Assembly: GCF_038871235.1 (NCBI RefSeq)
Contig: NZ_JAVZIN010000005.1
Location: 45,735 to 109,734 of the forward strand
Source: Candidatus Hadarchaeum sp.
GTDB taxonomy: Archaea; Hadarchaeota; Hadarchaeia; Hadarchaeales; Hadarchaeaceae
Length of the DNA: 64,000 bases
Reading direction: 5' to 3'
Part shown: piece after piece, positions 272-62,709 of the stretch
How the letters are laid out: each line of letters opens with the position of its first letter
Position numbering within the stretch: position 1 is the stretch's first letter
Translations under genes and position numbers: made by a program
Notes under the pieces: generated by a model
Told to the model about the DNA's origin: nothing
What the model saw: the letters and a program-made list of their open reading frames with translations, nothing else
The model's database searches: none

Positions 272-702
272 CTTTTCACCTTCTTAACCACGCGAATCTC
301 TTCTATAGCTGTGGTTGGATATTGACCCGCCTCATCTTTTTCCAACCCTTTCACCATATCCCAGATAGCTAGAAGCGCTCCGGCCACCCCAGCTAAAGCC
401 TCCATTTCAACTCCAGTCTGCCCGACGCTTCTTACCTCCACCTCGGCACGGACGCCGTTGTCTTCAATCTTGAGGTCAACATCAACACCTGTGATCGGGA
501 TGGGGTGGGTAAGAGGAATCATATCGGTTGTCCTCTTCACAGCCATTATCGCCGCCGTCTGCGCCACCGCAAAAACATCTCCCTTTGGTACTTCCTTTGA
601 TCGTATTTTTTTCAGGGTTTCTTTCTTAAGACGGATGAAGCCGCTGGCACGAGACATTCGAAACTCCTTCTTTTTCCCCCCAATGTCGACCATATGGACC
701 AT
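268..702 (-). CDS. moaC: Cyclic pyranopterin monophosphate synthase
   Basis: MVDI, KGDVFAVA, IPLTHP and TGVEMEAL motifs. Confidence 0.95.
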   Translation of the reverse strand: MVHMVDIGGKKKEFRMSRASGFIRLKKETLKKIRSKEVPKGDVFAVAQTAAIMAVKRTTDMIPLTHPIPITGVDVDLKIEDNGVRAEVEVRSVGQTGVEMEALAGVAGALLAIWDMVKGLEKDEAGQYPTTAIEEIRVVKKVKS

Positions 703-791
703 GATATCACTTTAGAAAAATCGCTGTAGCGAAATATAAGTTTGGGTGGAGATATAATTGGCCTAAAACCGGCCACAACTCTGATGTGTCG

Positions 792-1073
792 CTAGTAATA
801 CATGGGGCTGATGTGGCGCTCCTCAACCGGCATCCAAATGAAGGTTCTCCCCATCTTTTCGCGCCTGACTCTTCCCGAACACTCCAAATGCTTCAGTACT
901 TGATTGACCTCCCTGACCTTCCAGTTTAAGGCCTTGGCAATATCGGCCGAGTTGTACAGTCCGAATCTCCTGACGACAAACTCCACCACGCTTCTCTTTA
1001 TCTCCATGGTTAGATCTTCCTCGCTCTCGAAATCGTCTTCCTCTTCCTCAACGTAGATTGGGGCCTCCCTCAT
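792..1073 (-). CDS. Small winged-helix protein with acidic N-terminus and C-terminal MYY
   Basis: SADIAKALNW..EVNQVLKHL..SGRVRR...W wHTH pattern; GGTG upstream. Confidence 0.7.
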   Translation of the reverse strand: MREAPIYVEEEEDDFESEEDLTMEIKRSVVEFVVRRFGLYNSADIAKALNWKVREVNQVLKHLECSGRVRREKMGRTFIWMPVEERHISPMYY

Positions 1074-1092
1074 TTAAATCACCAATAACAAT

Positions 1093-1515
1093 TCAGCTAG
1101 TCTTTAATTTAAACTGCGCCTCTGTGACCAAATCTTCAAAAACCTCCTCGGACAAAACCTCTCCCAACCCAATGCCAGGACAATCATCAGCAAAATTGAA
1201 AATATATTTGTTATCCTTCTTACAAACTGAAAAGGGATAAAAGCGACAAACCAAAGGACGAATATCATAAATTCTGCAAGCTTTACCATCCAAAAAAAGG
1301 CATTTACCTCCCCTCTTTTTCATCTTGTATTGATAAGCTCCTTTATTTGAAATCGGTGTCGCGAAAGCGAGAGGACTCAAACCAGTTTTTTCGGAGATCT
1401 CCTCGACCTCACTTTTGGTCAGAAGCAGGTTTCTGCCGCGATGCGATGTGTCGCCGCAGCATCTGGCACATCGCTGGCACTCAAAGCGCATATTTTTCGG
1501 CACGAGAAGATTCAT
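1093..1515 (-). CDS. YkgJ-family (CxxCxxCC) Fe-S/Zn cluster protein
   Basis: FECQRCARCC...CLFL..CRIY..RPLVCRFYPF..CPG; start trimmed to ATG 1515 because the longer call overlaps the divergent gene. Confidence 0.85.
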   Translation of the reverse strand: MNLLVPKNMRFECQRCARCCGDTSHRGRNLLLTKSEVEEISEKTGLSPLAFATPISNKGAYQYKMKKRGGKCLFLDGKACRIYDIRPLVCRFYPFSVCKKDNKYIFNFADDCPGIGLGEVLSEEVFEDLVTEAQFKLKTS

Positions 1516-1702
1516 GGTTAAAACTCTCGAAACATAAGATATAACTTTTTCGCTTTTGATCAAATTTAAAACCAAATTTTTACGCCGCTTGTGGAAACAA
1601 ACAGGCCCACGTCTGCCTAAAATTGAAAAAACTTTAGTCTTCAAAAATGACCAATTTAAAGGAAGCGACCGGTGCAATAAACTAAAAAACGTTTGGAGAT
1701 AA

Positions 1703-3004
1703 TTGGTATCAATGTTCTTAAAAAGAATTTTCAGCAGGCCTCCATCGCCTGAACCCATGGTGGAAAGATTAACCGTGGATTCTCTGCGAAAACGAGTGAT
1801 AGTTTTGAAGGAGGAAAAAATTAAAAAAAGTAGGCCAGAATTGGGCGCCCTAGTGCAGGAGACTAACAAAGAATGTGCCGCTCTCTCTGAAAGCCTGAAA
1901 GAGCTTCATAGATCAGACCCGGACGAGGCGGTTCATTATGGTCTCGTGAAAACAGCGATTGAGGCCAGAAAGCTTTTTTACGAGAAGATTTCGCGAGCCA
2001 TCACCATCATGGAGTGCGCACAGGAACTCACGGGGGCTTCTATTCCGAAGATAAATGAAAGATTTTCTAAAGCCACTAGCATCATCGGCGACGCTATGAA
2101 AGCACACGGACGCTATGTGAGGGCGGTATTCGTAAAAAAATATTCTGAGTTTGAGTTCCACTTGCGCAAACTGTACGAACTAGTCACGCAAACTCAATCG
2201 ATTCTCAACAGGATTATCGGCGAAATGAAAGCTTTAGATGATCTCATTTCGGAAATTTCAGCCTATCAGCAGATACAGCTGGAGATGGAGAAAATTAAGG
2301 AAAACATCGCTTCTTTGCAAGACAACAGCAGAAAGATTGATGCCGAAATCAATGAAGCAGTTTCTCAACTCGCTCGACTTAAGGGAAGTCCAGAATTTAA
2401 AAAGATAACTGAATCGGCTGAAGAACTTGAGAGAACTAGGCACGAAATAAACAGAGAAAAGGAAACGGCAACAAGCTTAATCTCTGAGTTGAACCGGCCG
2501 TTTCGAAAACTGGAAAAAATCTTAGACGCCGGTGAATATCAAATGGGCCCAGAGACTCGAAGGATTCTAGAAATTTGTATATATGAACCCACAGAGTTGA
2601 TTTCCTCCGATGAGAAGCTAACCCTTTTTGAGAAACTTCTCCACGAAACAACTAACCTCGCCAACTCCGGTAAGATAGATCTAGATAAGCGAGAAAGAAA
2701 AAACTTAGAGATCGCAACACGTTTTCTACCGTCGAGGCTGAAGAACATCAAAAATAATTTAGCCACTTTGGTGGAAAATGCTGAAACCAAGAAAAAGGAA
2801 TCTGAAAGCCCTGTATTCGATCAAGCCGGCAAACTGGAAAACTTGATAAAAAAGCTTGAGGAGGAGCGCAAGGAGGCTCAAAACACTGTCGATGAACTCA
2901 AAAACAGGGTTAAATTGAAGGAAGAAGAACTGGTTTCCAGAAAGAACAACTTGCAGAAGCTTGCCAGCGAAGTCCTAGGAACAAGAGTGGAAATCACTTT
3001 TTAA
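1703..3004 (+). CDS. Long coiled-coil hypothetical protein
   Basis: 433 aa, E/K/L-rich heptads, no Walker motifs. Confidence 0.75.
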
Positions 3005-3161
3005 AATCCGTGTACCCGCATTTGCCGCAGGACCATCGGTTTTTGTGGTCCGCCATGAACACTCCTGGACCACAACGGGGACACTGAGGTCTCTGACGCT
3101 TCAAGGTTTTTCCATTCAGTTTGTATAGCCTCGACTTCGATGCTTTAACCTTCTCGGCCAT
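2994..3161 (-). CDS. rps27ae: 30S ribosomal protein S27ae (55 aa)
   Basis: Not in track. [55 protein letters not shown], directly after rps24e. Confidence 0.95.
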
Positions 3162-3163
3162 AT

Positions 3164-3520
3164 TTATCCTTCTCCTTTACTTGATTCGCTCTTAGTTGGA
3201 GGCGCCTTCTTCTCCGGCTTCGCCTCAGCGGCTTTTTCCTCCTTAGGCACGCCGCGTTTAAACAGATACTCGGGCTCCATAGACTCCAGCTGCTCACGTG
3301 TGCTGTAGACACGAGCCACCCCAGTTGCCACCTGACGACCATGTGAGCTAGTGAACCGCTCAACCACCAGAAGTTCCTCAGATGTTCCCAGAATTGATGC
3401 CAGCTGAGGCTTGACTTCAAGTCGGCTGGGAGTCGGGGCCCCCGAATGATCTATCCTAAACTCGACCTCGACCCTCTTAAGCAATGGATTTTCTGTCCTT
3501 TTGATCACTTCAATCTTCAC
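3164..3520 (-). CDS. rps24e: 30S ribosomal protein S24e
   Basis: [17 protein letters not shown]...ARVY...EP. Confidence 0.95.
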
Positions 3521-3602
3521 TTTTATCCCCTTCTCAATAGAACTATACCAAAATAAACCCCACGTTTTAAATTATTTGGGTTGGGTAAGATCGCCGGTTG
3601 TA

Positions 3603-4118
3603 TCATCCCTCAAATTGGCTCAGGATCTCCCGAAATTCTTGGCGCTTTTTTTCATCGACCTCGATCAAAACGACTCCTTGTCTTGGCTGTCCGTACACCA
3701 CAACCGACCCATCCTGTGAGGTGAGCACCGCCGGGATTGTGGCAAGATCCTCTTCACCCTCCACGATGATCTTTGTGGGCGGTTTTGCCGACTCCACCGC
3801 TTTCCAGAGCTCCGGAGATATCGAGGCGGCAGGGTTCCTAACCTGAATAACTTTGGCTTCAAAGGATTCTAATGTTGACTTAATCTCCTCACCAGCCGGA
3901 GTTCTCATGATAACTAAATCTATCACAGCGATGTCGGGTTTAAACCCGGCAATGAGAAAGCCATAGGTTACCATATCGCCGACCGTGATCAACCTGTTGG
4001 GCCTGATTCTACGAAGACGATCAAAAACATCGTCTAGGTTGGTATACAGTATGCCCAATGGTCGCTGAAGCCTTGGACGCAGACTTTCCGGCAGCTTCAG
4101 TATTCTATTTTCAAGCAT
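3603..4118 (-). CDS. GTP-dependent dephospho-CoA kinase (DUF359)
   Basis: ITVGDMVT, NPAA.I, VEGEEDLA, YGQP motifs; usual position upstream of rps24e; start trimmed (4118 or 4130). Confidence 0.9.
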   Translation of the reverse strand: MLENRILKLPESLRPRLQRPLGILYTNLDDVFDRLRRIRPNRLITVGDMVTYGFLIAGFKPDIAVIDLVIMRTPAGEEIKSTLESFEAKVIQVRNPAASISPELWKAVESAKPPTKIIVEGEEDLATIPAVLTSQDGSVVVYGQPRQGVVLIEVDEKKRQEFREILSQFEG

Positions 4119-4176
4119 GCGTATCAGCATCGTTGGATTTATAACCTCAATTAAATACATCGTTTGAGCTGAATAA

Positions 4177-7014
4177 ATGGATGTTTTTTCCCAGTTGATA
4201 GAGCCGGTGAGGCGGGTCATCAAGGGCATGGGGATTAGCAGCCCCACCAAGCCACAGGAGCTGGCCCTACCCGCTATCCTAGGCGGAAAAAACGTGCTAC
4301 TGGTTGCTCCCACCGGTACTGGAAAAACCGAGGCCGCCATTCTTCCGGTACTTAGCCTTTACCTGTCGCAAAAGCGGGCCGCAGGAATCGAGATACTTTA
4401 CATCGCCCCGCTCCGGGCACTGAACCGTGATATGCTCAGCAGGTTCACGAAAATCTGTGAAGCTCTGGGAATCACTGTCGCGGTCAGACACGGCGACACA
4501 CCAGCGGGCGAACGGCAGCAGCAGAAAATGGAACCACCCAAAATGTTGATCACGACGCCAGAAACTCTTCAAGCCATACTGCCTGGAAAAATTATCGGAA
4601 AACACCTGAAAAGCGTTCGGTGGGTGATTATAGATGAAATACATGAGCTGGCCACTGACAAGCGTGGGGTTCAGCTAGCTGTGGGTTTGGAGCGCCTCTC
4701 GGAAATAGCCGGCAATTTTCAGCGCATTGGACTCTCGGCCACAGTCGGTTCAAAAAATGAGATAGCAAAGTTTCTGGTTGGTTCTGACCGCCAAGTGGAG
4801 ATTCTGGATGCCTCGATGGAGAAGAAGATTAAAATCAGGATTGAGAGCCCCCTGCCATCCAAAAATGATATCGGGCTTGCGGAGCGCCTCTCTGTTGACC
4901 CCACGATGGCAGCGAGGTTCAGAAGGCTTCATGAGCTGATCGATAAACATGGCTCAGTCCTGATCTTCGTCAACACTAGGGAGACAGCAGAAACATTGGG
5001 ATCTCGCCTTAAATTGCTCGAACCATCGCTGAAGGTAGGCATCCACCATGGTTCCTTGGCTAGGGAAATCAGGATCGAGGCTGAAGAGGGCTTCCGCAGC
5101 GGCCGTCTGAGAGGACTCATCTGCACCTCCTCCATGGAGCTTGGAATCGACATTGGGGCGGTGGATTTGGTGGTCCAGTACATGTCGCCGCGCCAAGTGA
5201 CTAGATTAATTCAACGAGTGGGCCGTTCAGGCCATCGTGCCGAAGCTAGCTCGGAAGGAATTATAATCGCGGCCAGCCCGGACGACGTTGCCGAAGCTAT
5301 GATCATCGGAAAGAAAACGTTGTTGGGTGAACTAGAGCCAGAAAAATTCCACTGCCTCCCGCTGGATGTCTTGGCCCACCAACTGGTCGGGATCTCCTTG
5401 GATCGGGGCAGACCGAGCATCGAGGAGGCCGTCTCGTTGTTGAAAAGGGCCAGACCATACCAGAGTTTGGACGCGGCTACTGCTGAACGGGTGTTAAAAC
5501 AACTTGATTCAGAAGGCATGGTGAGATTAGAAGACAAACATTTTAGGCCCCGCAAACCCGGATTTTCTTACTATTTCACCAATTTGTCAATGATACCGGA
5601 CACCCGGCGCTACACGATAAAGGACATCGTCTCAGGAAAAACAGTTGGCACTTTGGATGAGGAATTTGTCGCCTATCACGGGGACCAAGATCTAACCTTC
5701 ATAATGAAGGGCGAAGCTTGGAAAATAATTGAAATTGATAACGAACGTGGGCAAGTGTTGGTCGAGCCGAGCAACGACCTGTTGGGAGCCATTCCGGCCT
5801 GGGAAGGAGAGCTAATTCCGGTGCCTTTTGAAGTCGCCCACGAAGTTGGTTCCCTTAGGTCGAAGATATCTCAATTGCTAAAAAAGGGCCACGCTTGCGA
5901 AGAGATAGTTTCTGTACTTGCCAAGGAATACCCAGTGGACAACCAAGCTGCGGGTTGGTTGGTGGAGTATATTAATGAGCAAGTTACCAGCGGTACCGTT
6001 CCCACGCATGAAGATATCTTAGTCGAAGCTAGCGGTAACTTTGTGGTCCTGCACGCTTGCTTCGGTAGTCTCGTCAACCAGACCATGGCATTGATTTTAG
6101 CGGCCCTGCTGACAGCAAGAACGGGGGCTAGCGTCACTGTAAAGGTTGACCCCTATCGAATTGCCTTCAAGCTGGCGGTTAAAGCCGATCCGGAACTTAT
6201 CAAGACGATTATCACTGAACTCAAGCCGGAGCATCTGTTACCCCTCCTAAGGATAGCCTTGAAAGACAGCCCAATGTTCAGGTGGCGTTTAATTCAAGTT
6301 GCGAAGAGATCTGGGGCGATAAAGAGGGACGCCGACCTGACTCAGTTAAACTTACGTCGTTTGGTGGTCCATTTCGAGGGTACACCAATCTACGAGGAGG
6401 CTCTGAAGGAGATGACGGTGGAAAAACTCGACGTTGAGAAAACTGTGGAAATTCTCAGGCTTCTAAGATCAGGGGCCATCAGAATCTCGACGTTAAGCGG
6501 CGAAGAACCGACGCCGTTAGCCTGGCCTGTGTTGAACGAAATATCGGGGAGTGAACTAATTCTGCCCAAAAAGGCTGAGCGGGAGATCATCCGCGCTCTC
6601 GTTAGGCGTTTGGACCAACAAATTGTCAGGCTTCACTGTCTTAACTGCAACCAATGGTCTACAACCACCAGAGTCGGGCGCGTCGAGGACCCTCCGATAT
6701 GCAAGAACTGCGGGGCTAGGCTGATCACCCTGCTGCCTCGAGAAAATCGCGTACTTTTATTGGCAATAAAAAAACATGCGGCGGGGACAAAGCTCAACCG
6801 GGAAGAAGAACACCGGGTTAAGCGGTCTTTCCAGGCCGCAAACTTGGTCCTGAGCTACGGAAAACGGGCGGTGATCGCCCTGTCCGGCCGCGGCATTGGG
6901 CCTCAGACTGCGGCCAGAATTCTCAGCAAAAACTCCTCGGATGAAGCCTTTTACCGAGACATCCTTCAAGCGGAAAGAATTTACTCACGCACCAGACGTT
7001 TCTGGGACGTGTGA
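4177..7014 (+). CDS. lhr: Lhr-family ATP-dependent DEAD/DEAH helicase
   Basis: APTGTGKT, PLRALNRD, DEIH, LSAT, QRVGRSGH, C-terminal Zn finger CxxC..CxxC. Confidence 0.92.
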   Translation: MDVFSQLIEPVRRVIKGMGISSPTKPQELALPAILGGKNVLLVAPTGTGKTEAAILPVLSLYLSQKRAAGIEILYIAPLRALNRDMLSRFTKICEALGITVAVRHGDTPAGERQQQKMEPPKMLITTPETLQAILPGKIIGKHLKSVRWVIIDEIHELATDKRGVQLAVGLERLSEIAGNFQRIGLSATVGSKNEIAKFLVGSDRQVEILDASMEKKIKIRIESPLPSKNDIGLAERLSVDPTMAARFRRLHELIDKHGSVLIFVNTRETAETLGSRLKLLEPSLKVGIHHGSLAREIRIEAEEGFRSGRLRGLICTSSMELGIDIGAVDLVVQYMSPRQVTRLIQRVGRSGHRAEASSEGIIIAASPDDVAEAMIIGKKTLLGELEPEKFHCLPLDVLAHQLVGISLDRGRPSIEEAVSLLKRARPYQSLDAATAERVLKQLDSEGMVRLEDKHFRPRKPGFSYYFTNLSMIPDTRRYTIKDIVSGKTVGTLDEEFVAYHGDQDLTFIMKGEAWKIIEIDNERGQVLVEPSNDLLGAIPAWEGELIPVPFEVAHEVGSLRSKISQLLKKGHACEEIVSVLAKEYPVDNQAAGWLVEYINEQVTSGTVPTHEDILVEASGNFVVLHACFGSLVNQTMALILAALLTARTGASVTVKVDPYRIAFKLAVKADPELIKTIITELKPEHLLPLLRIALKDSPMFRWRLIQVAKRSGAIKRDADLTQLNLRRLVVHFEGTPIYEEALKEMTVEKLDVEKTVEILRLLRSGAIRISTLSGEEPTPLAWPVLNEISGSELILPKKAEREIIRALVRRLDQQIVRLHCLNCNQWSTTTRVGRVEDPPICKNCGARLITLLPRENRVLLLAIKKHAAGTKLNREEEHRVKRSFQAANLVLSYGKRAVIALSGRGIGPQTAARILSKNSSDEAFYRDILQAERIYSRTRRFWDV

Positions 7015-7094
7015 ATCAACCCACACCAGACCTCCAAGAAGCCAATACATTTTCATTCAAGTCAATTTTTATAAACAGACGCTTGTTCAATTGA

Positions 7095-8369
7095 TCAAGC
7101 CAAAATCCTAGTGCCGCTTTTTCCCATTTCTACTAACAGCTCTCGCAACTGCTCTAGCCTTGAATCTATCATTACCGGTTTCTCAACCATTTTCATCGCG
7201 GTGGCCACATCCTTGAGCCCACCGCCTGTGACTTCGACCACAACGATATCGGAACCCGAGATAACGCCTTCATCCAACAACCTCTTCAATCCCGCCAGAC
7301 CGGCTGCTCCGGAAGGCTCAGCAAAAATACCCTCGCTTCTGGCCAAGCGCTTAACGGCTTCCAGTATTTCCGCGTCGCTTACGGACGCTGCTGTTCCATT
7401 GGAGCGCTTGATCGCGGGGATTGCGGTATCGGCGTCCCAAGGGTAGGGATCAACCAGTCCGCCCGCTACCGTCTTCGGGTTGGGCCACGGTTGTATCTCG
7501 TATGGTGGCGTGCCTTCCTTAAATGCCTTGACAATCGGAGCACAACCCTCAGCCTGAATCGCGACGAGGCGTGGCACTTCCCTTGTCAGACCCATCTGCT
7601 GGAATTCAAAATAACCCTTAGCATTGCCCGAAAGAAGCGTGCCGGCTCCGGTGGGGACGATTACCCAATCGGGCACTTGCCAGCCCAGTTGCTCGCAGAC
7701 TTCATAGGAAATTGTCTTCGAGCCCTCGGGCTGATAGGGGTTGAAGGCCCCACCGCTGGGGATCGGATGCCAGCCGAATTTCTTCCAAGATTCCTGCATG
7801 AGCTTGTAGGTCGGGTCACCATTGCTGCGCTCCTTGGGCTGAACGACATGAGCACCGTGCATCAAAAGCTGAGCTACTTTGCTCTCTGGGGCGCCAGCGG
7901 GAACAAAGGCGTGACACTTGATGCCCGCCTTGGCCGCATAAGCGGATAGAGCTACAGCGGCGTTACCACTTGAAGCACACACCACTGCGCGAGCCCCAAA
8001 CTCCACAGCTTTTGATACGCCCACACTCATGGGCCGATCCTTGAACGAAGAGGTCGGGTTTCTGGTCTCGTCCTTTAAATAGAGGTGCTTCACCTTTAGC
8101 TCCTTCGCCAGACTTGTCGCCGGAATTAGTGGCGTCCCCCCCTCTCCAAGCGACACAATATTTTTCCGGTTCATCAACGGCAGCAGCTCAAAATACTTCC
8201 AGACACCACTTTTTCTTCTGGCGAGTTTTTCTCTATTGATTTCCTCCGCAATGAGCTGATAATCGTAAATCACATCGAGCTTCCCGCCGCAGCTCCTGCA
8301 GACATATAGGTCCTTGGCTGGCCGGTATCTTCTCCCGCACCTGAGACATCTGAGTTCTGAAAAGGGCAA
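7095..8369 (-). CDS. thrC: Threonine synthase (PLP) with N-terminal Zn ribbon
   Basis: NPTSSFKDR, ASSGN, VPTGAG, EPSGA; TTG start after GGTGAG. Confidence 0.85.
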   Translation of the reverse strand: MPFSELRCLRCGRRYRPAKDLYVCRSCGGKLDVIYDYQLIAEEINREKLARRKSGVWKYFELLPLMNRKNIVSLGEGGTPLIPATSLAKELKVKHLYLKDETRNPTSSFKDRPMSVGVSKAVEFGARAVVCASSGNAAVALSAYAAKAGIKCHAFVPAGAPESKVAQLLMHGAHVVQPKERSNGDPTYKLMQESWKKFGWHPIPSGGAFNPYQPEGSKTISYEVCEQLGWQVPDWVIVPTGAGTLLSGNAKGYFEFQQMGLTREVPRLVAIQAEGCAPIVKAFKEGTPPYEIQPWPNPKTVAGGLVDPYPWDADTAIPAIKRSNGTAASVSDAEILEAVKRLARSEGIFAEPSGAAGLAGLKRLLDEGVISGSDIVVVEVTGGGLKDVATAMKMVEKPVMIDSRLEQLRELLVEMGKSGTRILA

Positions 8370-8459
8370 CTTCTCACCCGCCTTCTCTGTTTCCCAGAAG
8401 ATAATGAAGTGCCCTGTAGTTTTAAATCCCCCTACGCTCAAACTTGTATGGGAGATGGG

Positions 8460-9041
8460 ATGACAGTTGATATCTGGATCGAAATCTTCCTTGTCGCAAT
8501 CATTCTAATTCTTCTGGGCTGGATACTCTACTCAGGTGGTGGCTCACGTCAGCGCAAGTTACAACAGGAGATCGAGGCCCAGCGTGAGGAACTCAGGCTA
8601 TTGAGGGAAGCCAATGAATCGCTGCGCAACGCCCTTGGGCTCAGTGAAGAAGGCAAGCTGAGGCGCCATCAAGAGATATTTCAATTTCTGAGAGACTTGG
8701 AGAGCCTTCGCGCAGCCATAGCTGGCTCGACCATCTCCCAAAAGGTGCTTCGAAGCAAATACGGCGATGTTGAAGGTTTTGAGCTTCTCACCCGAATAAT
8801 GGACGCTAGGCCGAACATAGACCCCGCAGTGAAGAGGAGAATCGCGGACGAAATTTTGGTTGGTGAAGCCGGAAGAACAATAATGAAGGCCTTGGATAAG
8901 GGAGCTTCGATAGACCGGGCGGCCTCCGCTGCTGGCATGCCGCTAATCGTGGCCAAAGGACAGATAAGAAGGCTCCAGATGCTGGGTTACTTGGACTCTA
9001 GGCTCAAACCGACCGAGCAGGGACGTAGGGCTTTGGAATGA
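8460..9041 (+). CDS. Membrane-anchored coiled-coil protein with C-terminal winged helix
   Basis: N-terminal TM IWIEIFLVAIILILLGWIL, coiled coil, IRRLQMLGYLD...TEQG wing. Confidence 0.7.
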   Translation: MTVDIWIEIFLVAIILILLGWILYSGGGSRQRKLQQEIEAQREELRLLREANESLRNALGLSEEGKLRRHQEIFQFLRDLESLRAAIAGSTISQKVLRSKYGDVEGFELLTRIMDARPNIDPAVKRRIADEILVGEAGRTIMKALDKGASIDRAASAAGMPLIVAKGQIRRLQMLGYLDSRLKPTEQGRRALE

Positions 9042-9257
9042 AAAGTCATTGAAAACATTTTATCGATCTCCCTAGTCGAGATTCCGGACGAACCTCTTGC
9101 CATTTCTGGGGAGTCCTGCTACTGGGCCATTTAAGTCCGATCTTGCTAAAAAATAAGAGGCCTGAGTCATAATGACGGGCATAAAGTTGCCCACTGACGG
9201 TCACTAACACTCCCGTAAAGCGTAAAAAGTAGAGTAATAGTTTATACTGGGATAAAA

Positions 9258-10229
9258 ATGGTTAGCCTCGGCCGAAACTTCAAAAATTGCCTCCTGATAG
9301 AGCACCTAGACGAGCGGGAAAAGCTCGCCTTCATTAAAGGGGAGCTAAGTTTAAGTTCAATAAATCCAAAAGTGCTAAAAAAAGCCAAGTTGAACGTTGA
9401 AAGGCAGATTGAGATAATTACTGATCTCGGGATGTCCCATCTTGAAATCGAGCTGGATTCCACCGATGCCTACTTGGATTTTTACCCTGAAAAAAGGGAG
9501 CGCATCAACGAACTGGCTAAAGCAAACGAGCTGACTTTGTCCGTGAACCTGCCCCACTCATTCACCAACGGGGGCATTGGCTCGCTCAGGGAAGAGGACA
9601 GGGAAGCTGCAACGGAGATTCAAAAAAAGCACATTCAACTCGCCGCTGATATCGGCGCAAAATATGTGAGTCTATGCCCTGGAAACGTTCCTGCTGAAAA
9701 CAGGACCGGGAATTATAGGGAGATGGTACACAACTCTTTGGTCAACAGCTTGGTGGAACTGGGAAAATTTGCCAACGAGCTGGGCCTAGCCCTTCACCTG
9801 GAGAACAACGTCGCCTTCGATGGCATCTGCTATGAAATCGATGAATGCCTCAGGTTGGTGAAAAGAGTAAGGGAGCAGGGTGTGCCCATCTACTTCAACT
9901 TTGACATTGGAAATTGGCTGACCAATGCTGAATTTACCCGACAAACAATGGCACATCCGGAAAGCTCCCTTGCATCAATATCGCCCGATTATATCAAGGA
10001 GCTTCATCTGAGCGACTATGTCCCAGAAGAAATGACCTTGCGGCCGCCATTGCACCTAGAACTGGGGATGATGAAACATTATAATCTGGAACACTACGCT
10101 AGGCTAGCTAAAATAAAAAAGGCAGAAACCGTCGTCGTGGAAACTGAGATCAAAAGCTTGGAGCAGGCGATAAATTACAAGGATGTTCTTCGCAACGAAA
10201 CGGACTACCTGTTCCACATCTTCAGATAG
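9258..10229 (+). CDS. Xylose isomerase-like/AP endonuclease 2 TIM-barrel protein
   Basis: AADIGAKYV, LHLEN, FDIGN, ELHLSD; some metal ligands degenerate. Confidence 0.75.
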   Translation: MVSLGRNFKNCLLIEHLDEREKLAFIKGELSLSSINPKVLKKAKLNVERQIEIITDLGMSHLEIELDSTDAYLDFYPEKRERINELAKANELTLSVNLPHSFTNGGIGSLREEDREAATEIQKKHIQLAADIGAKYVSLCPGNVPAENRTGNYREMVHNSLVNSLVELGKFANELGLALHLENNVAFDGICYEIDECLRLVKRVREQGVPIYFNFDIGNWLTNAEFTRQTMAHPESSLASISPDYIKELHLSDYVPEEMTLRPPLHLELGMMKHYNLEHYARLAKIKKAETVVVETEIKSLEQAINYKDVLRNETDYLFHIFR

Positions 10230-10252
10230 GTGCAGCCAGGTTGTTTAAAAAC

Positions 10253-10873
10253 TTACTTCAGTAGCTTGGCAACTTCTTCCTCAGAGAGTTCCCGGTAGCC
10301 GTTCTTATCGATGACCGCCACCATCGTCTTCTCGCCTGTGGCCGCATCCCTCTCTATTGCCGTTTTTATCGACTGCGCCGCCAGCTTGGCACATTCCTCT
10401 AGCGACATATCGTCCCGGTACATCTGCTCGAGCACACCGTAGGCAATCGTCGACCCTGTTCCGGCGCTGGCAAACTTTTCCTCCTCGATCTTCCCACCGA
10501 CGGGGTCAAGGAAGTATAGACAAGGCCCCTCCGGGTCTATTCCCGAGATAACACCTGCGACTATGTAAGGAAAAATTCTCCTGCCAAAGAGGAGGTTCGA
10601 CGCCACCTGGACTAGACCTTTGGTCGTGATGGGACGACCCCGATTCAACCGGTAAAGGTTGGCCTCGGCCCGAAGCAGGCTCACAAAGCTCTGGATGTCG
10701 CCGGAGCTTCCTGAAATCGCGGCACCGATGAAATCATCCAGCTTGAACAGCTTGGGAACCCTCTTGCTAACCACGAGATAATAAGAGGTCCCTCTAGTGT
10801 CAGAGGCTAGCGCTATGCCCTCCTTGCATCTCAGGCCCACGACGGTTCCGGTGAATCCAAACATAAAGGTCAA
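10253..10873 (-). CDS. psmB: 20S proteasome beta subunit, probably non-catalytic
   Basis: VGL.CKEGIALASD.R, KLF, GTGS, RDAATG; position 1 is Gly, not Thr. Confidence 0.9.
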   Translation of the reverse strand: MTFMFGFTGTVVGLRCKEGIALASDTRGTSYYLVVSKRVPKLFKLDDFIGAAISGSSGDIQSFVSLLRAEANLYRLNRGRPITTKGLVQVASNLLFGRRIFPYIVAGVISGIDPEGPCLYFLDPVGGKIEEEKFASAGTGSTIAYGVLEQMYRDDMSLEECAKLAAQSIKTAIERDAATGEKTMVAVIDKNGYRELSEEEVAKLLK

Positions 10874-11040
10874 AATTAACTAAACCCACGGGTTATAATA
10901 ATTATCGCCTAACCAGAAAACTAGCGGGACCACGCCAGTGTTTTCTCAGGTGTTGTCAACCAAACAACGCCAGTGACTATATAAGCTAATCTTTCCGATA
11001 TTCTTCATTTATTAATGCCCCGCGCGCAAAGCTCCGGCGG

Positions 11041-11712
11041 GTGAAAGTGGAGGTGAACACGACCAAGCTAAGCCTGATATGTTCCTTGGTGGGCTTGGTT
11101 GCTATATACGCGGCCGCTGTTACAGTCCGACCCAAGATAACCCCAATCGCTAGCCTGAACGAAAGTTTCATCGGACTCAGAGTTTCCGTTTCAGGTCAAG
11201 TTGTCGACTACCGTGACCACAAGGAGGGCCACCTTTTTCTCAAGCTGAAGGATAAATCCGGGGGGCTGGTCAATGTGCCGATATTCTCCAGAACTCGTTC
11301 GCAGCTCGAAGAATCAATTGAACTTCTTGACATCGTGGAAATAACCGGAGAAGTTGCCCTTTACCAAGGAGAACTTGAGGTAATCCCGGAGGGGGCCAAG
11401 CATGTCAAAATTGTGCACACGGCACCGACAAAGCTTTCTGAAATCGGCAAAGAAAATGCAGGCGCTCCGGTCAAGGTACAAGGTATAATTTCCAAGCGAG
11501 AAATCGTTGGGAGCGGTAACCTGGTGCTAACATTGGAGAATGACGGGAACAGACTGCCGGTTTTCGTCCCCTCTTGGATCGCCGAGGATGGTTTACCTGA
11601 GGTTCACGTCGGCGATACTGTCCGAGTTGATGGCTGGATTCAGCTCTACAATGGGGAGGTTGAGCTAAAGCTGACCAATGCCTCGCATCTGCACTTGGTT
11701 GAGGATGCTTAG
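11041..11712 (+). CDS. Membrane-anchored tandem OB-fold protein
   Basis: N-terminal TM then two repeats V.V.G.V...G.L.L.L.D...V.VF...D.V.(I/V).G....Y.GE.E. Confidence 0.8.
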   Translation: MKVEVNTTKLSLICSLVGLVAIYAAAVTVRPKITPIASLNESFIGLRVSVSGQVVDYRDHKEGHLFLKLKDKSGGLVNVPIFSRTRSQLEESIELLDIVEITGEVALYQGELEVIPEGAKHVKIVHTAPTKLSEIGKENAGAPVKVQGIISKREIVGSGNLVLTLENDGNRLPVFVPSWIAEDGLPEVHVGDTVRVDGWIQLYNGEVELKLTNASHLHLVEDA

Positions 11713-12939
11713 ATGCTGGAAACGCTCGCTTACGTCATGGCGGGTGTGGCGCTGGGAACGTTAACCGGACTGATACTAGGACTCCACGTCAACAACCTGA
11801 CCCCGATCTTGATCGCTCTGGCCGCCGGTGCCTCGAGGGAGATGGTGGCCTTGATAGTCGCGATGTCGATCACAAATGCTTTCATAAGTTATATTCCCTC
11901 AACTTTCCTCGCCGCGCCTGAAGAGGGCACCGAACTCTCCGTGTTGCCTGCCCACCGACTTCTCCTCGAGGGGAGAGGATATCAGGCAATCAGGCTCTCG
12001 GCAACCGGTTGCTTGGGTGGTGTGATGCTATCCGCGGCGCTGGCCTTGCCGTTTATGCCTGCCCTTGGTCCGATTTATGACCTCATCAAGCCACTGATGC
12101 ACTGGTTGCTCCTCGCCGTCACCGGTGTAATGATCTCCCTAGAGAGGTCTTGGAATAAAATTGTCTGGGCGTTAGCAATTTTTCTAGTGTCGGGGCTACT
12201 CGGCCTTGTCTCCCTTGACTCCGGCATCATGCCTGCTGACACCGCGCTGCTGCCCTTACTCTCAGGACTTTTCGGAGCCAGCGTGCTGCTGCCCAGCATT
12301 ATCAACTGCAGCTCACTTCCTGAACAATACACGGATGAGAAAGCGATTAAAATCCAAACTGGTCTGAAACCTGTCTGCGCTGGGACTGCCGCTGGAATCC
12401 TAACCGGAATTGTGCCAAGCATCGGCCCCTCCCAAGGTACCGTGCTGGCCCAGCTGGTTGCCCGCTCTAGGGGCACCGAAGAATTTCTGCTGTCAGTAAG
12501 CAGCGTGAACACCTCTAAGGCCATTTTTTCCTTCCTCGCGATTTTTGCCATCGGAAGGGCCAGAAGCGGGGCTGCCGTTGCTGTCCAGAAGATCATGGAG
12601 GCCGGCAACGTCAACCCGCTGCTGATAATTGGTGTGGCTCTACTCGCCGGAGGCATTGCCGCTATCCTAGAGCTCCAACTGGGAAAGCTCGCCGCCGGGC
12701 ACATGGACCGACTACCCTACCGGGGCCTCGGTGTCGCCGTCATGACTTTTATATTGGGACTTACCTTTTACTGTTCTGGGTTAATCGGGATTCTGGTGCT
12801 GGTTACGGCCACAGCAGTTGGAACGCTGCCCGCTTTAACCAAAGTAAAAAGAACCCATTGCATGGGGGTGCTCATGCTGCCCTGCATGCTCTTCTTCGCC
12901 GGAGCAAAGAATATCGCTTTAACCGCACTTGGTCTCTGA
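11713..12939 (+). CDS. Archaeal TctA/DUF112-family multi-pass membrane protein
   Basis: G.LTGL..GLHVN, IPSTFL..P...ELSVLPAH..LLEGRG, GVL motifs; ATG abuts upstream stop. Confidence 0.85.
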   Translation: MLETLAYVMAGVALGTLTGLILGLHVNNLTPILIALAAGASREMVALIVAMSITNAFISYIPSTFLAAPEEGTELSVLPAHRLLLEGRGYQAIRLSATGCLGGVMLSAALALPFMPALGPIYDLIKPLMHWLLLAVTGVMISLERSWNKIVWALAIFLVSGLLGLVSLDSGIMPADTALLPLLSGLFGASVLLPSIINCSSLPEQYTDEKAIKIQTGLKPVCAGTAAGILTGIVPSIGPSQGTVLAQLVARSRGTEEFLLSVSSVNTSKAIFSFLAIFAIGRARSGAAVAVQKIMEAGNVNPLLIIGVALLAGGIAAILELQLGKLAAGHMDRLPYRGLGVAVMTFILGLTFYCSGLIGILVLVTATAVGTLPALTKVKRTHCMGVLMLPCMLFFAGAKNIALTALGL

Positions 12940-12970
12940 AATAATTCCATGTTCAAAAAAAGCATTAAAT

Positions 12971-13393
12971 TTATTCGCCTTCCAGTTCACCCAAATGAAT
13001 TGTCTCCCAACTTACCTTGCCCGCCTCGATCACCTGTTTGAGTCTCCGCTGCAGCGGCGTGAGTTCGGCACTCTTACCGGTCTTAATGTCGACGAAAGTT
13101 ACTCTTCTTGGTTCCCCCTCTTTATAGCCATCGAAAACCACATAGTCCACTGGGGAGCCCAGAAATCTAGCATCGGCGGGCTCGTGCTTGAAAATGGGCA
13201 ATAGCGGAGCGAGCTGCTCACCTATCTTTCCCTTAAGCGCCGCCCGGCTTCTCTCAAGAACCTCCTGCCTGATCCTCCACTCGAATTCCGACTTCCAGCG
13301 TTCAAATTGGACCGACAACCGCTCCCGCAGATAGAGAAAACAGAGAAGGATCCCTAAGAAAAAGCCCAAAATAAAGATTATTATCTCGATAAT
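12971..13393 (-). CDS. Membrane-anchored Holliday-junction-resolvase-like PD-(D/E)xK endonuclease
   Basis: TM helix; SR..LKGKIGEQLAP, RFLGSPVDYVVFDG, FVDIKTG; start at TTG 13435 or ATT 13393. Confidence 0.85.
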   Translation of the reverse strand: MIEIIIFILGFFLGILLCFLYLRERLSVQFERWKSEFEWRIRQEVLERSRAALKGKIGEQLAPLLPIFKHEPADARFLGSPVDYVVFDGYKEGEPRRVTFVDIKTGKSAELTPLQRRLKQVIEAGKVSWETIHLGELEGE

Positions 13394-13512
13394 CCGCTCA
13401 CCCCCTTCAATAACCCCGTATCTCTCAACTCTCAAGAGCCTTTCCTCAGTTTACGACAGTTTATTATAGAGGTGCTCAAATAGATTCTTGAACCGGAAAA
13501 TTTGACGAGGCG

Positions 13513-58568: not shown

Positions 58569-59342
58569 TTAAACTTGTCTTTTCCATCGGGTAGCATAAC
58601 GTTCGATTGCACCAAACACTATTAAGTCAAAAACAACGTAAATGGCTATCAGAACTATCGCATAGCTGTAAACGTAAACAAACATTCCCATCCCATAATA
58701 ATAAAGGAGCTGAAGGCCTGCTCCAACCGTCGTGCCTATCAATTCTGCAATTATAATCAACTTAACGCCTACGCCGAAAGCCGACCTTGCCGAGCCGATG
58801 ATGTAGGGAAACAGATAGGGCAAAAAGACCCTCCTGATCTTCTTCCATCTGCTGAACCTGAAAACATCGGCCATTTCATCGTAACGTACATCTCTGCTCT
58901 TAATTCCTTCGGTGACGCTGAAAATCATTATTGGTGACAAAACAATAACTTGTAGAAGAAACCTGCTGAATTCAGTTGATCCGAATATTATCATTAATAT
59001 TAATACCCAACATATAGCTGGTATAGAAAACAAAATGTTTATTGTAGACATTATCAAAATGTTCGCGCGCCTATACAGACCAGCTACTATGCCTACCGGC
59101 AGGCTCACCAAAAAAGCAAGAGAAAACCCGATTATAACTCGGTAAAGAGTGTAGCCGACGTGATACATGAACTTATCATGTTCAGCAAGAATCAGTTCAA
59201 ATGGTTTTTGAATAGGCGGCACCAAGTAATCTGGATAAACAAAAGTAAGCGCCAGCCAGATTAAAAGAAGAATTGATGCTCCCATCAAAGTGCCAACGAA
59301 TTTGTTCTTTAATATTTTCAGTAGCATCTCTTTTCGCTTCAT
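58569..59342 (-). CDS. NitT/TauT-family ABC permease
   Basis: TL.R...GF, IP...W, EAA-like loop, AELIG. Confidence 0.88.
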   Translation of the reverse strand: MKRKEMLLKILKNKFVGTLMGASILLLIWLALTFVYPDYLVPPIQKPFELILAEHDKFMYHVGYTLYRVIIGFSLAFLVSLPVGIVAGLYRRANILIMSTINILFSIPAICWVLILMIIFGSTEFSRFLLQVIVLSPIMIFSVTEGIKSRDVRYDEMADVFRFSRWKKIRRVFLPYLFPYIIGSARSAFGVGVKLIIIAELIGTTVGAGLQLLYYYGMGMFVYVYSYAIVLIAIYVVFDLIVFGAIERYATRWKRQV

Positions 59343-59672
59343 TTATGACCCGCCCTTCCATTTCGTGGCATAGATTTCTATGGGGTAAAGAACCCCATAA
59401 TCAACTATTAGCATGAAAACCACAACAATAACAGTCGCAGAGAGAATGAGATATAATGAGGCCACACTCCATCCGAAAGATAAAACATAGCCAATTCCAA
59501 CATTTGAACCCAATAATTCTGTAAAAACGGCTATCTTGATGAGCTCTCCGAAAGCCGACCTTGCCGAGCCGATGATGTAGGGAAACAGATAGGGCAGAAA
59601 GACCCTCCTGATCTTCTTCCATCTGCTGAACCTGAAAACATCGGCCATTTCATCGTAACGTACATCTCTGCT
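58774..59672. repeat. 125-bp direct repeat at 58774-58898 and 59548-59672, one mismatch
   Basis: Direct comparison; both copies encode SRDVRYDEMADVFRFSRWKKIRRVFLPYLFPYIIGSARSAFG. Confidence 0.95.
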
Positions 59673-60101
59673 TTTGACACCCTCAGAGACGCTGAAGGCC
59701 ACCATTGGAAACGTAGTTATCATGGCAACAAAAATCACGGACCAAGTTGTTACTCCAAACAGAATAAATGCCAAAAACGCCCATACTGTTGCTGGGATGG
59801 TTAAAACAAATCCAACGAAAGAACCTAAAATGGCCTCAACTGTCTTGAATTTACCCATACTCATTCCAAGAAACAAGCCAACAGAGATTGACAGCACAAA
59901 TCCAAACCCAATTCGATAAAGGGTTGTGAAGAAATGAGTTCCAATCTTTTCAATATCAAGCATATAAACTAAAATAACATGAGGCGGAGGCACTAGCGGA
60001 TTCAAAAGCGATAGCAAATACCACATTGCCAACACGATGACTAAGCCAATCAATAACCTCTTGAAAATTTCTATATTTCTACGCTTTGGAGGCATCGGCA
60101 A
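59343..60101 (-). CDS. NitT/TauT-family ABC permease
   Basis: PPP, TL.R...GF, EAA-like loop, ELLG..GIG. Confidence 0.88.
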   Translation of the reverse strand: MPMPPKRRNIEIFKRLLIGLVIVLAMWYLLSLLNPLVPPPHVILVYMLDIEKIGTHFFTTLYRIGFGFVLSISVGLFLGMSMGKFKTVEAILGSFVGFVLTIPATVWAFLAFILFGVTTWSVIFVAMITTFPMVAFSVSEGVKSRDVRYDEMADVFRFSRWKKIRRVFLPYLFPYIIGSARSAFGELIKIAVFTELLGSNVGIGYVLSFGWSVASLYLILSATVIVVVFMLIVDYGVLYPIEIYATKWKGGS

Positions 60102-60813
60102 GCATCCTCATGGATTTTTTCAAAACAGAGAAAAATGCCTCAGAAGTCTTGTTTCGCGGCCGTTTTAGGTTAACCTTGATTTCACCAAAGTTTCTCCCAG
60201 GTGCACCTGTCATTACAATGATCCGATCCCCAAGACAAACGGCCTCGCTTATATCGTGCGTTATGAAAATAATGGTTTTCTTGGTCTCTTGCCAGATCCT
60301 TTCCAACTCGGTTCTAAGATGCTCCGCCGTTATCTCGTCTAGGCTGCTAAAAGGCTCGTCCATAAGAAGGAGGTCTGGGTCTATGGCTAGTGCTCTAGCT
60401 ATCGAAATGCGCTGTCTCATCCCGCCCGACAATTCCAAAGGGTATTTGTGCTTGGACTCTTTCAAACGTACCAGTTCTAAAACTTTTTCCACTCGTTCCT
60501 TTTTTTCATTTGGATCGGAGTAAAATTGTTCCACGGCCAGCTCTATATTTTTTTCCGCTGTATACCATGGAAGCAAACGATCTTCCTGGAATACTGCCGC
60601 TATTTTGTGCTTTTTATGACCCTCTTCAAACTTTATCGTGCCCCCGTCAATGCTTTTTATCCCTGAAATACATCCCAATAAAGTGGATTTGCCGCATCCG
60701 GATTGTCCGATAACACAGACCAATTCACCCCGTTTTACTTCTAGCGAAAAATTAGACAGAGCCGTAACGTCTCCATATTTTTTTGTCAGGTTTTTTACTT
60801 CGAGATAGTACAT
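60079..60813 (-). CDS. NitT/TauT-family ABC ATPase
   Basis: GQSGCGKS, FQE.RLLPW, LSGGMRQR, MDEPF. Confidence 0.93.
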   Translation of the reverse strand: MYYLEVKNLTKKYGDVTALSNFSLEVKRGELVCVIGQSGCGKSTLLGCISGIKSIDGGTIKFEEGHKKHKIAAVFQEDRLLPWYTAEKNIELAVEQFYSDPNEKKERVEKVLELVRLKESKHKYPLELSGGMRQRISIARALAIDPDLLLMDEPFSSLDEITAEHLRTELERIWQETKKTIIFITHDISEAVCLGDRIIVMTGAPGRNFGEIKVNLKRPRNKTSEAFFSVLKKSMRMLADASKA

Positions 60814-60899
60814 ATTGTTAATTTTTTTTATTTTATCATTTAAAAAGTTTTATAATATTTTTCGCGGTACAATTTAAACCCACCTTCACCTAGATATTA

Positions 60900-61350
60900 A
60901 CCCTCATCCCCTGTCTAATGGCGGTCCCTCGAATAGTGCCACATGTAACAAAAAGAGGCGAGACCCAGCAGAATCTTCGCACTTTCGGAACCTGTGGTTG
61001 AAAACTATCAAACGCTCGTGTGATCTTTCATTGTCTCAAAAGTCGCTCGATATAATTTTTGTTCTTCCTCCTGTGAAGAACTTCCACATTTCTGCTCCTC
61101 CTGCTGGAGCAGCGCGCGGCCGAATTAACCGTATGCGGTCCAAGTTCCTCGCAGAGCCGCCGTATTTTTGAAGCTTGGTTCGTGGAAGTAAGGCAATAAG
61201 CGAGGCCCTTCTCCTTTGGTTTTTTATTTTTTTAAAACCTTTCAGTAGTCGCTCCGAAGGCTACGGAGGAGAGCAGACAAAGGGGCCCATGAGTTCTGTT
61301 TGCAGAGACATTGCCTCCTTTTCATTGTCCGCCTTTCCGCCAGCCTTGAG
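60900..61350 (-). mobile_element. Possible highly degraded IS6-like transposase remnant
   Basis: Minus strand 61057-61000 reads NYIER/FETMKDHT/AFDSF across frameshifts, like the IS6 N.IER.F...K.R...F motif; boundaries approximate. Confidence 0.35.
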
Positions 61351-61497
61351 ATGACTTAAAAACCAAAGCCTTGTTTAAACAGTGATTTTTCTTAGGAACC
61401 ATCCATATTAAAGTAGAAAACTATCAAACAATTGCGTTTTTAAAAAGACCGGTACTTATTTTTAAAAGTAAAAAAAGGCTATTGCGGTTTTATTATT

Positions 61498-62574
61498 TTA
61501 TTTAAGAACAACAATTCGTGAATCGGGATCAGGAACTGGCTGTTTAAACGCTCCGACGCTATAGAGTTGATCCCAAGCAAACATAATGCTCTCTTTCATT
61601 TCTTGTGTGATGAAACCGAGATGCCAGACATAATAGTTCTCATAATAGAAAGCTGCTGTCGAGGCATCCACTCCCATCTTTATCTGCAAGAATGCCTTTG
61701 CCTCCAGCGGGTGTTCTTTGAGGTAGTTCACTGCCTTTTCGAAAACTCTGCAGAATGCTCTAAGTGCTTCCTCATTTTTCTGCAAGAAATCCGATCTAGT
61801 GACCATATACTGGGCTGGTGGGTATTCCTTTCCGGTCACTTTCTTGTACTCCTCGTATAAATTGATGGAAACCATATCTGGATCATTCCAAGCTTTTGCA
61901 TACGTTACCGCATCCAAATAAGCGGCGTCTATTTCTCCTTTTTTGATCGACTCGTAAAGCGCTGGGACTGGCGCGATGACTGGATCGCCTATTGTTATTC
62001 CATATTTGCCTGCTACTATCTTGAAAAGTAGAGTACCAGTCCAGGCCGGCGCCCCTGAACCCCAAGTTTTCCCTCCCATATCCGCCACACTAGTAATTCC
62101 AGACGTCTTCAGCGCAAAATACCTCACAGGATAGGTGCAAGTAGGGTGAAACATCACTATGTCCTTACCTTCAATAATGTTGGTAGCTGCCGCTGTCAGT
62201 GACATGTCAGTCATGTCAGCGTCCCCAACAAGGAAACTTGAGTATGTGCCACCCCAGTCTGCGAAGTAAAGAAGCTCAACATCAAGCAATGGTTCTTCTT
62301 TGAACCAACCTTTTTCCTCGGCCAAAATATACGGCGCAAAAACCATCCCATAGGTGTTTACAGATAATCTAATTTTTGTAGGTGTTATGGTTTGAGTAGT
62401 TGTGGGAGTCGGAGTCGTGGGTGATGTCGTATAGGTATATATCACGGTCGTGGTAGTGCCTGGTACTACCTTTGGAACTGAAACTATAGCATAAACTGCG
62501 ATCAACAAAGCAATCACTGCAACCGCAAATAGCCCATAAATTACTACGGAAGTTTTTGCTTGACCCTTTTCCAA
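61498..62574 (-). CDS. ABC substrate-binding protein (NMT1/THI5/SsuA-like) with TM anchor and Thr-rich linker
   Basis: A.EKGWF.E..LDVE, GI.S..D..GK, GEIDAA; TTG start after GGAGG. Confidence 0.85.
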   Translation of the reverse strand: MEKGQAKTSVVIYGLFAVAVIALLIAVYAIVSVPKVVPGTTTTVIYTYTTSPTTPTPTTTQTITPTKIRLSVNTYGMVFAPYILAEEKGWFKEEPLLDVELLYFADWGGTYSSFLVGDADMTDMSLTAAATNIIEGKDIVMFHPTCTYPVRYFALKTSGITSVADMGGKTWGSGAPAWTGTLLFKIVAGKYGITIGDPVIAPVPALYESIKKGEIDAAYLDAVTYAKAWNDPDMVSINLYEEYKKVTGKEYPPAQYMVTRSDFLQKNEEALRAFCRVFEKAVNYLKEHPLEAKAFLQIKMGVDASTAAFYYENYYVWHLGFITQEMKESIMFAWDQLYSVGAFKQPVPDPDSRIVVLK

Positions 62575-62709
62575 TTTAGACCCTCCGTTTGAAAATAATA
62601 AAATAAAATTTTTAAAGCTTATGCTTCTGTAAAGTAAACCTTTTAATTTAACACCCCATAATTCCTCAGAAGTTAGACCCCCGGCAAGGGTGGATTGAGG
62701 CATCTCACG

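Follow-up and report, generated by a model that had tools for sequence, protein, structure and literature searches.

We analysed a stretch of 64,000 nucleotides (nt; hereafter the window) from the 1.2-Mb, 94.75% complete metagenome-assembled genome of a Candidatus Hadarchaeum, an uncultured archaeon from a hot spring (contig NZ_JAVZIN010000005.1, positions 45,735 to 109,734 of the forward strand), in which two abutting genes encode an OB-fold protein anchored in the membrane and a TctA-like membrane protein, the latter from the only TctA gene of the genome. The first gene (11041..11712, forward strand) encodes a tandem OB-fold protein of 223 residues, recognised from the open reading frame (ORF) list, Pfam and an AlphaFold2 model, and the second (11713..12939, forward strand) a polytopic membrane protein of 408 residues that the ORF list and Pfam place in PF01970 (TctA, DUF112). 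At their junction (...gct TAG ATG ctg...) the stop codon of one is followed by the start codon of the other with a gap of 0 nt; an alternative start of the OB gene, the GTG at 11047, which is the annotated start in relatives, gives a protein of 221 residues. On the reverse strand (12971..13435), the ORF list and Pfam identify a gene for a Holliday-junction-resolvase-like, membrane-anchored PD-(D/E)xK nuclease of 154 residues (PF10107), convergent with the TctA gene and separated from it by a 31-nt spacer between the two stops (12939 and 12971). Both the OB protein and the nuclease have a hydrophobic N-terminal segment. An earlier note on this DNA, made from the sequence alone, had described the same three genes, with the zero-gap junction and the convergent nuclease 31 bp away, and had read them as a DNA-uptake module of receptor, channel and nuclease; the ORFs, the Pfam matches and the model agree with its description, and its reading is weighed below.

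The OB-fold protein

Pfam matches PF01336 in two stretches of the OB protein (E 6e-16) together with PF13742, and the OB similarities returned by NCBIfam (ExoVII large subunit, HAN nuclease, AspRS) all fall below threshold. In the AlphaFold2 model (predicted local distance difference test score, pLDDT, 92.1) a helix at residues 2-29 precedes two beta-barrels, for a layout of helix (~2-29, with the hydrophobic segment at 11-29), OB1 (~47-125) and OB2 (~143-219). Foldseek retrieves tandem-OB binders of single- or double-stranded DNA with this model (Teb1, POT1, HIN domains, SSB and RPA; E 2e-9 to 7e-6).

The helix keeps G18 in every one of 39 sequences and S15 and Y23 in almost all, and G18 does not vary among distant single-OB relatives either. 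This conservation speaks for a helix that stays in place as an anchor and makes a specific contact within the membrane, and on the strength of these three residues we reject a cleaved signal peptide at this N-terminus. The flanks of the helix have a net charge of +1.5 on the N side and -1.8 after it: a net positive N flank with a net negative post-helix stretch is seen in 32/39 and 34/35 sequences, and the N flank exceeds the C flank in 34/35. This distribution points to an N-in topology with the OB barrels outside, and hence the OB domains probably face outward, a predicted answer to the question of side that the earlier note had raised.

The OB family counts 677 representatives at E <= 0.001, which range from a single OB unit to six or more, and Undinarchaeota and Altiarchaeales are among its named members. 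The relatives listed by word-index search for the OB and TctA proteins were all at the level of Hadarchaeota, and the protein atlas clusters for the OB protein held only Hadarchaeota and Thermoplasmatota, which we treat as a lead only.

The TctA-like protein

The 408-residue protein is a true TctA-family member without TctB or TctC. It matches PF01970 from profile position 1 to 422 of 423 at 168.4 bits (cut-off 28.9, E 2.7e-49), and 72 positions are invariant in 37 Hadarchaeota sequences, including the stretches PGLHVNN and GIGPSQGT; NCBIfam has nothing for this protein or for the nuclease, and a sequence search of PDB chains with the TctA profile returned nothing. Scanning contigs with the single TctA protein gave three close Candidatus Hadarchaeum loci, whose TctA proteins are 90, 83 and 79% identical to it. 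TctC (PF03401) and TctB (PF07331) had no match across the whole 94.75%-complete genome, in searches whose positive controls matched; the earlier note had remarked that neither partner lies nearby. Its description of such genes as misannotated as citrate transport is a fair one for a TctA-family member that lacks both. The large subunit of bacterial TctABC, as known from citrate uptake in Salmonella (PMC10133366, cited here and below from part of its text), shares PF01970 in an end-to-end match; the Hadarchaeum system differs in the absence of TctB and TctC, in the tethered OB-fold protein that partners TctA, and in its substrate, which is likely nucleic acid rather than a tricarboxylate.

Conservation of the OB-TctA linkage

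PF01970 occurs in 54/66 Hadarchaeota genomes and in 23/26 of the high-quality ones. By tblastn, an OB homolog lies directly upstream of TctA in 34/34 Hadarchaeota loci (L001-L034, the window's own copy being L004), one of which is cut by a contig end (L028) and another of which has an OB-TctA gap of ~300 nt (L033); the pairing therefore exceeds chance. In the most distant Hadarchaeota genome (G001, L046), a 200-residue protein with a weak OB match overlaps the start of TctA.

Eleven Hadarchaeota genomes, the window genome not among them, carry a second TctA (TctA2; L035-L045) of ~25% identity. By Pfam, two of these loci (L039 and L045) present a cluster of a Zn-ribbon protein, a Zn-ribbon/transmembrane/OB protein, TctA2 and a YdjM-like membrane hydrolase of ~395 residues (for example at L039:696-5524), and the other nine have the same gene sizes and order. 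The first Zn-ribbon protein has a weak OB match in L039, and the Zn-ribbon/OB protein has weak, sub-threshold matches to DUF4131, which we take to be the N-terminal OB region of ComEC; TctA2 is in this way a further TctA that comes after two OB genes. The YdjM homolog of the window genome is unlinked.

The wider search for relatives reached 161 genomes, ~120 of them outside Hadarchaeota, and found a TctA match in 128. All 90 TctA matches outside Hadarchaeota were fetched with 3 kb on either side, and genes were called as naive longest ORFs. Of the 90 loci, 83 contain a recognisable TctA ORF, which is full length in 77; seven loci with no TctA ORF by profile (L079, L082, L126, L130, L131, L135 and L136) and six with a TctA ORF of <330 residues (L086, L094, L101, L108, L124 and L134) were excluded from both the 77-locus count and the tree described below. 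An OB gene stands immediately upstream of TctA, on the same strand, in 28/77 loci spanning 21 GTDB families, at gaps of -28 to +98 nt; 19 of the 28 pairs overlap, although longest-ORF starts may overstate overlaps. Pfam confirmed the OB assignment in 5/5 submitted loci (L052, L053, L063, L064 and L119), and the remaining OB calls outside Hadarchaeota come from a home-made profile built from homologs of the window protein; since detection relied mostly on this profile, 28/77 is a lower bound. An OB gene also lies 981 nt upstream of the short TctA ORF of L101, and in L121 a 530-nt gap upstream of TctA contains no OB gene.

On a TctA tree (FastTree), the OB label needs 14 changes, as against 29.6 when shuffled, and 0/500 shuffles were as low. 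The OB-linked genes are scattered yet clustered on this tree, which is weak in its deep branches. Closest to the window TctA on it is that of L053 (42% identity), which lies downstream of a 323-residue three-OB protein. From these surveys, the OB-TctA linkage, which the earlier note had seen at a single locus, emerges as conserved: widespread and ancient, not universal.

Variants of this arrangement also occur. L090, from another phylum, encodes a 987-residue multi-OB protein, TctA and a YdjM-like protein, and in family f11 (L107, L112, L113, L115, L117 and L119) a KaiC-like ATPase, a membrane protein of 229-419 residues with weak OB similarity and a short TctA (~375 residues) keep a conserved order.

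The pair resembles a transformation pair of methanogens

In Methanococcus maripaludis JJ, transposon hits fell in MMJJ_13020 and the adjacent MMJJ_13030, which encode, respectively, a protein with an OB fold and one transmembrane helix and a TctA-family protein with 11 transmembrane helices (Fonseca et al. 2023; PMC10133366). In-frame deletion of either gene abolished natural transformation and both deletions were complemented, and deletion of the TctA homolog of Methanoculleus thermophilus likewise abolished transformation; the authors put the TctA-like protein forward as the DNA transporter so far missing from the archaeal system and, in the part of the paper cited here, describe archaea as lacking TctB and TctC (PMC10133366). 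The link between archaeal TctA-like genes and transformation in methanogens to which the earlier note had pointed thus has a published basis. In the same part of that paper, a secreted thermonuclease (MMJJ_16440) is another transformation hit, and the hits in the pair are listed apart from the pilus genes; the window genome encodes a thermonuclease homolog.

The Hadarchaeum pair has the same adjacency and gene order as that of M. maripaludis: a protein with a single N-terminal transmembrane helix followed by OB folds, and a TctA-like gene immediately downstream on the same strand. The two are also alike in the absence of TctB, TctC and ComEC and in the presence of a type IV-like pilus in the genome, as far as the cited part of PMC10133366 covers the methanogen. 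The Hadarchaeum protein carries two OB folds, which may set it apart from MMJJ_13020, and it comes from an uncultured organism, its pair being known from sequence alone. The DNA-uptake reading of an OB/TctA pair is hence already published (PMC10133366) and is not new. The main text of a 2026 survey of archaeal type IV filaments (PMC13705601) contains none of the terms TctA, OB-fold and DUF112.

How DNA passes the archaeal membrane is unsolved because archaea lack ComEC, and genetics supports only one candidate, the OB/TctA-like pair. The present analysis adds Hadarchaeota as a phylum with a nearly universal, tightly coupled pair, the linkage in at least 21 other archaeal families and a diverged paralogous module; it also sets the nuclease outside the module and finds DUF2101 and type IV pilus genes as recurring associates. 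None of these additions changes the field by itself, and the Hadarchaeum case is a further example of a known system.

Bacterial competence offers a second comparison. In the ComEA/ComEC/EndA system, a membrane-anchored, outward-facing DNA binder and a polytopic membrane protein act downstream of a type IV pilus, and the Hadarchaeum OB anchor, TctA-like protein and pilus follow a similar logic. Unlike the bacterial system, the window OB protein has no HhH domain or DUF4131 match, and the ComEC Competence domain (PF03772) has no match in the window genome, with a control search that matched in 10 bacteria; DprA was not found in the window genome either.

Type IV pilus genes and DUF2101

The window genome has a complete type IV pilus locus on another contig, with genes for a T2SSE ATPase, two T2SSF proteins, a class III pilin and a prepilin peptidase; together with six pilin-like genes it lies at G000:C2:58-70 kb. 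It is abutted by an operon for six proteins with class III signal-peptide-like N-termini (judged by eye), a 242-residue protein and, as the last gene, a DUF2101 (PF09874) membrane protein; within L137 (G000:C2:58000-74000), the pilus locus occupies 418-6020 on the forward strand and the operon 6007-12600 on the reverse strand.

The uncharacterised DUF2101 also occurs directly before OB-TctA in several archaeal families that are not related to one another, by Pfam in six fetched loci (L063, L099, L100, L106, L116 and L134) and by coordinates in seven non-Hadarchaeota genomes (G066, G076, G085, G111, G129, G140 and G149). It is present in 60/161 genomes, and TctA is found in 56/60 genomes with DUF2101 as compared to 72/101 without, a co-occurrence that is only suggestive because related genomes are not independent. 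The literature searched contained no mention of DUF2101. DUF2101 may be a third component that ties the OB-TctA pair to pili. Taken further, OB protein, TctA-like protein and DUF2101 could form a pilus-coupled, ComEC-independent DNA translocon across Archaea, in which a small-anion transporter fold has been adapted to a nucleic-acid strand; the window genome, with DUF2101 in the minor-pilin operon and OB-TctA elsewhere, would then mark DUF2101 as the physical bridge between pilus and importer. We offer this extension as a tentative possibility.

TctA-like genes lie near type IV filament genes in a different way in L050, L056, L065 and L067, which belong to a TctA clade without an adjacent OB gene: here TctA is followed by an opposite-strand methyltransferase gene and then by a T2SSE (PilB-like) ATPase gene, and in L065 and L067 EF-1beta precedes TctA.

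Interpretation of the OB-TctA pair

We consider it fairly probable that the two-gene operon is the Hadarchaeum copy of the archaeal natural-transformation pair, in which the tethered OB protein catches the nucleic acid that the pilus brings and the TctA-like protein conducts or energises its passage. The architecture, the zero-gap coupling and the conserved linkage are observed here, and the requirement for transformation is taken from the genetics of two methanogens (PMC10133366). We infer that the OB protein, anchored by its one conserved N-terminal helix, would hold two OB barrels outside the cell. There the barrels would bind nucleic acid that arrives at the cell surface, probably by way of the type IV pilus whose genes lie elsewhere in the genome. 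In physical contact with its partner, the OB protein would then hand the nucleic acid, presumably DNA, to the TctA-like protein or gate it, and the latter would serve as the conduit, conducting or energising membrane passage without ComEC, TctB or TctC. The OB and orphan TctA part of the DNA-uptake module proposed in the earlier note accordingly matches published genetics (PMC10133366), and its nuclease part finds no support in our surveys.

Several points weigh against this assignment. Orthology to MMJJ_13020 and MMJJ_13030 is drawn only from family, architecture and gene order, and the genetic evidence is confined to M. maripaludis and M. thermophilus (PMC10133366), Hadarchaeum being uncultured. 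DNA binding does not follow from an OB fold alone: the TM-scores of the Foldseek matches to the OB model are low (0.26-0.48), and the acidic ectodomain (isoelectric point of 5.4, 20 K+R as against 28 D+E) appears unlike a non-specific electrostatic DNA binder, which counts against DNA as the ligand. The occurrence of TctA in 23/26 high-quality genomes of only ~1 Mb fits housekeeping uptake equally well, and outside Hadarchaeota no adjacent OB gene could be detected at 49/77 loci with a full-length TctA, their contexts including NrdD, SecDF, Mnh/PhoU-like proteins, EF1B with a T2SSE ATPase nearby, and an NTP transferase. The model of the TctA-like protein is all-helical (pLDDT 85.2) and has no Foldseek match at E <= 0.001; with VIA-align its nearest folds are YS1 (Z 11.2), INDY (6.1), Pho90 (6.0) and TRAP IseQM (5.4), all secondary transporters of small solutes, not polymers, at scores that lie below the tool's reliable level for helical proteins and may be due to chance.

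An alternative is a solute importer, in which TctA is an ordinary elevator-type secondary transporter. The tethered OB protein would then stand in for TctC and bind nucleotides, short oligonucleotides or another small anion on the outer side of the membrane, and methanogens would lose transformation indirectly or through an effect that reflects the uptake of degradation products. The full-length TctA family match with its conserved loop motifs, the small-solute transporters nearest to the TctA model, the near-universal occurrence of TctA in small Hadarchaeota genomes, the acidic ectodomain and the 49 loci without an OB neighbour all favour such an importer. Set against them are the clean deletions of the two genes, each of which abolished transformation completely and was complemented (PMC10133366), an OB fold of a type that resembles nucleic-acid binders, multi-OB proteins of up to 987 residues (L090) that suit a polymer better than a small ligand, and the association with pilus genes via DUF2101. 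On balance we regard a solute importer as unlikely.

The association with pilus genes could also mean that the pair acts in pilus or envelope biogenesis or function, for example by anchoring or gating the type IV pilus, so that DNA uptake is affected only through the pilus. The position of DUF2101 directly before OB-TctA in seven non-Hadarchaeota genomes would fit such a role, as would its place in the window genome at the end of an operon of six pilin-like genes beside those for the pilus ATPase, platform and peptidase, and the T2SSE ATPase two genes from TctA in L050, L056, L065 and L067. We know of no role for OB folds in pilus assembly, however, the Hadarchaeota pair does not lie beside the pilus locus, and in M. 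maripaludis the pair was reported as hits separate from the pilus genes (PMC10133366). A purely pilus-related or envelope function is therefore, in our judgement, quite improbable.

The PF10107 nuclease is a neighbour, most likely not a partner

The nuclease scores 132.3 bits against PF10107 Endonuc_Holl (cut-off 23.8, E 1.7e-38). All 23 aligned sequences of its family keep E73, D97 and K118 and have D or E at position 116, which we read as the E...D...(D/E)xK catalytic set; with this set intact, the enzyme looks active. A search of PDB chain sequences gave no match for the nuclease. It resembles the Hjc/PF10107 family in its above-threshold match and in keeping the catalytic set, and differs from archaeal Hjc in its N-terminal membrane helix. 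The helix is conserved in the family, and most homologs start at it, with R/K just after it, so that by the positive-inside rule the catalytic domain probably faces the cytoplasm.

PF10107 is found in 27/66 Hadarchaeota genomes, and 21 of these also have TctA; a control search matched it in Sulfolobus acidocaldarius and Methanosarcina acetivorans as well. The two genes adjoin in 4/21 (G000, G034, G036 and G039, all of genus g1) and lie on different contigs in the other 17, including a genome of only three contigs (G025). Counted by locus, the nuclease is present in 3/30 Hadarchaeota loci with >=800 nt downstream of TctA (L001, L003 and L004), and in 0/90 TctA loci of other phyla by tblastn or phmmer. 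Conversely, 33/54 TctA-positive Hadarchaeota genomes have no PF10107 match, and six have PF10107 but no TctA match. Furthermore, the nuclease is not co-transcribed with the pair, since the genes are convergent. The nuclease is thus most likely a separate neighbour gene outside the OB/TctA module, adjacent to it only in the genus Hadarchaeum: its link to the pair stops at one genus and its domain is probably cytoplasmic, and hence this PD-(D/E)xK enzyme is neither an EndA-type secreted nuclease nor the partner that the earlier note had taken it for.

A three-part module of OB receptor, TctA channel and membrane nuclease modelled on ComEA/ComEC/EndA, for which one could cite the 31-bp convergent spacing, the intact catalytic set, the membrane helix, the arrangement kept in the four g1 genomes and in loci L001 and L003, and a classical Hjc near the pair in an unrelated locus (L120), is largely refuted by these neighbourhood surveys; the inward placement that R/K after the helix would give the nuclease also weighs against it, and it strikes us as very improbable. 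In L120 the classical Hjc gene (PF01870; L120:3815-4192, reverse strand) lies two genes upstream of OB-TctA, a single case that may be chance.

Other features of the window

Upstream of the OB gene, the TATA-box-like octamer TATATAAG (10978..10985, forward strand), read by eye only, lies 56-63 nt before the start codon and is a possible promoter of the OB-TctA operon. By Pfam, the genes flanking the pair encode a proteasome beta subunit, a xylose-isomerase-like TIM-barrel protein, adenylate kinase and an EamA transporter, none of which suggests a function for it. The proteasome beta gene (10253-10873, reverse strand) adjoins the OB gene in 9/34 Hadarchaeota loci from two families (L001-L005, L007, L014, L017 and L026), and thus more often than the nuclease adjoins TctA; this is probably plain synteny. 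Further along the window, the stretch at 58569-62808 (reverse strand) has a G+C content of 0.41-0.42, compared to ~0.50 elsewhere, and this low-GC stretch was set aside as an ordinary ABC transporter operon encoding two permeases, an ATPase and an NMT1-type binding protein.

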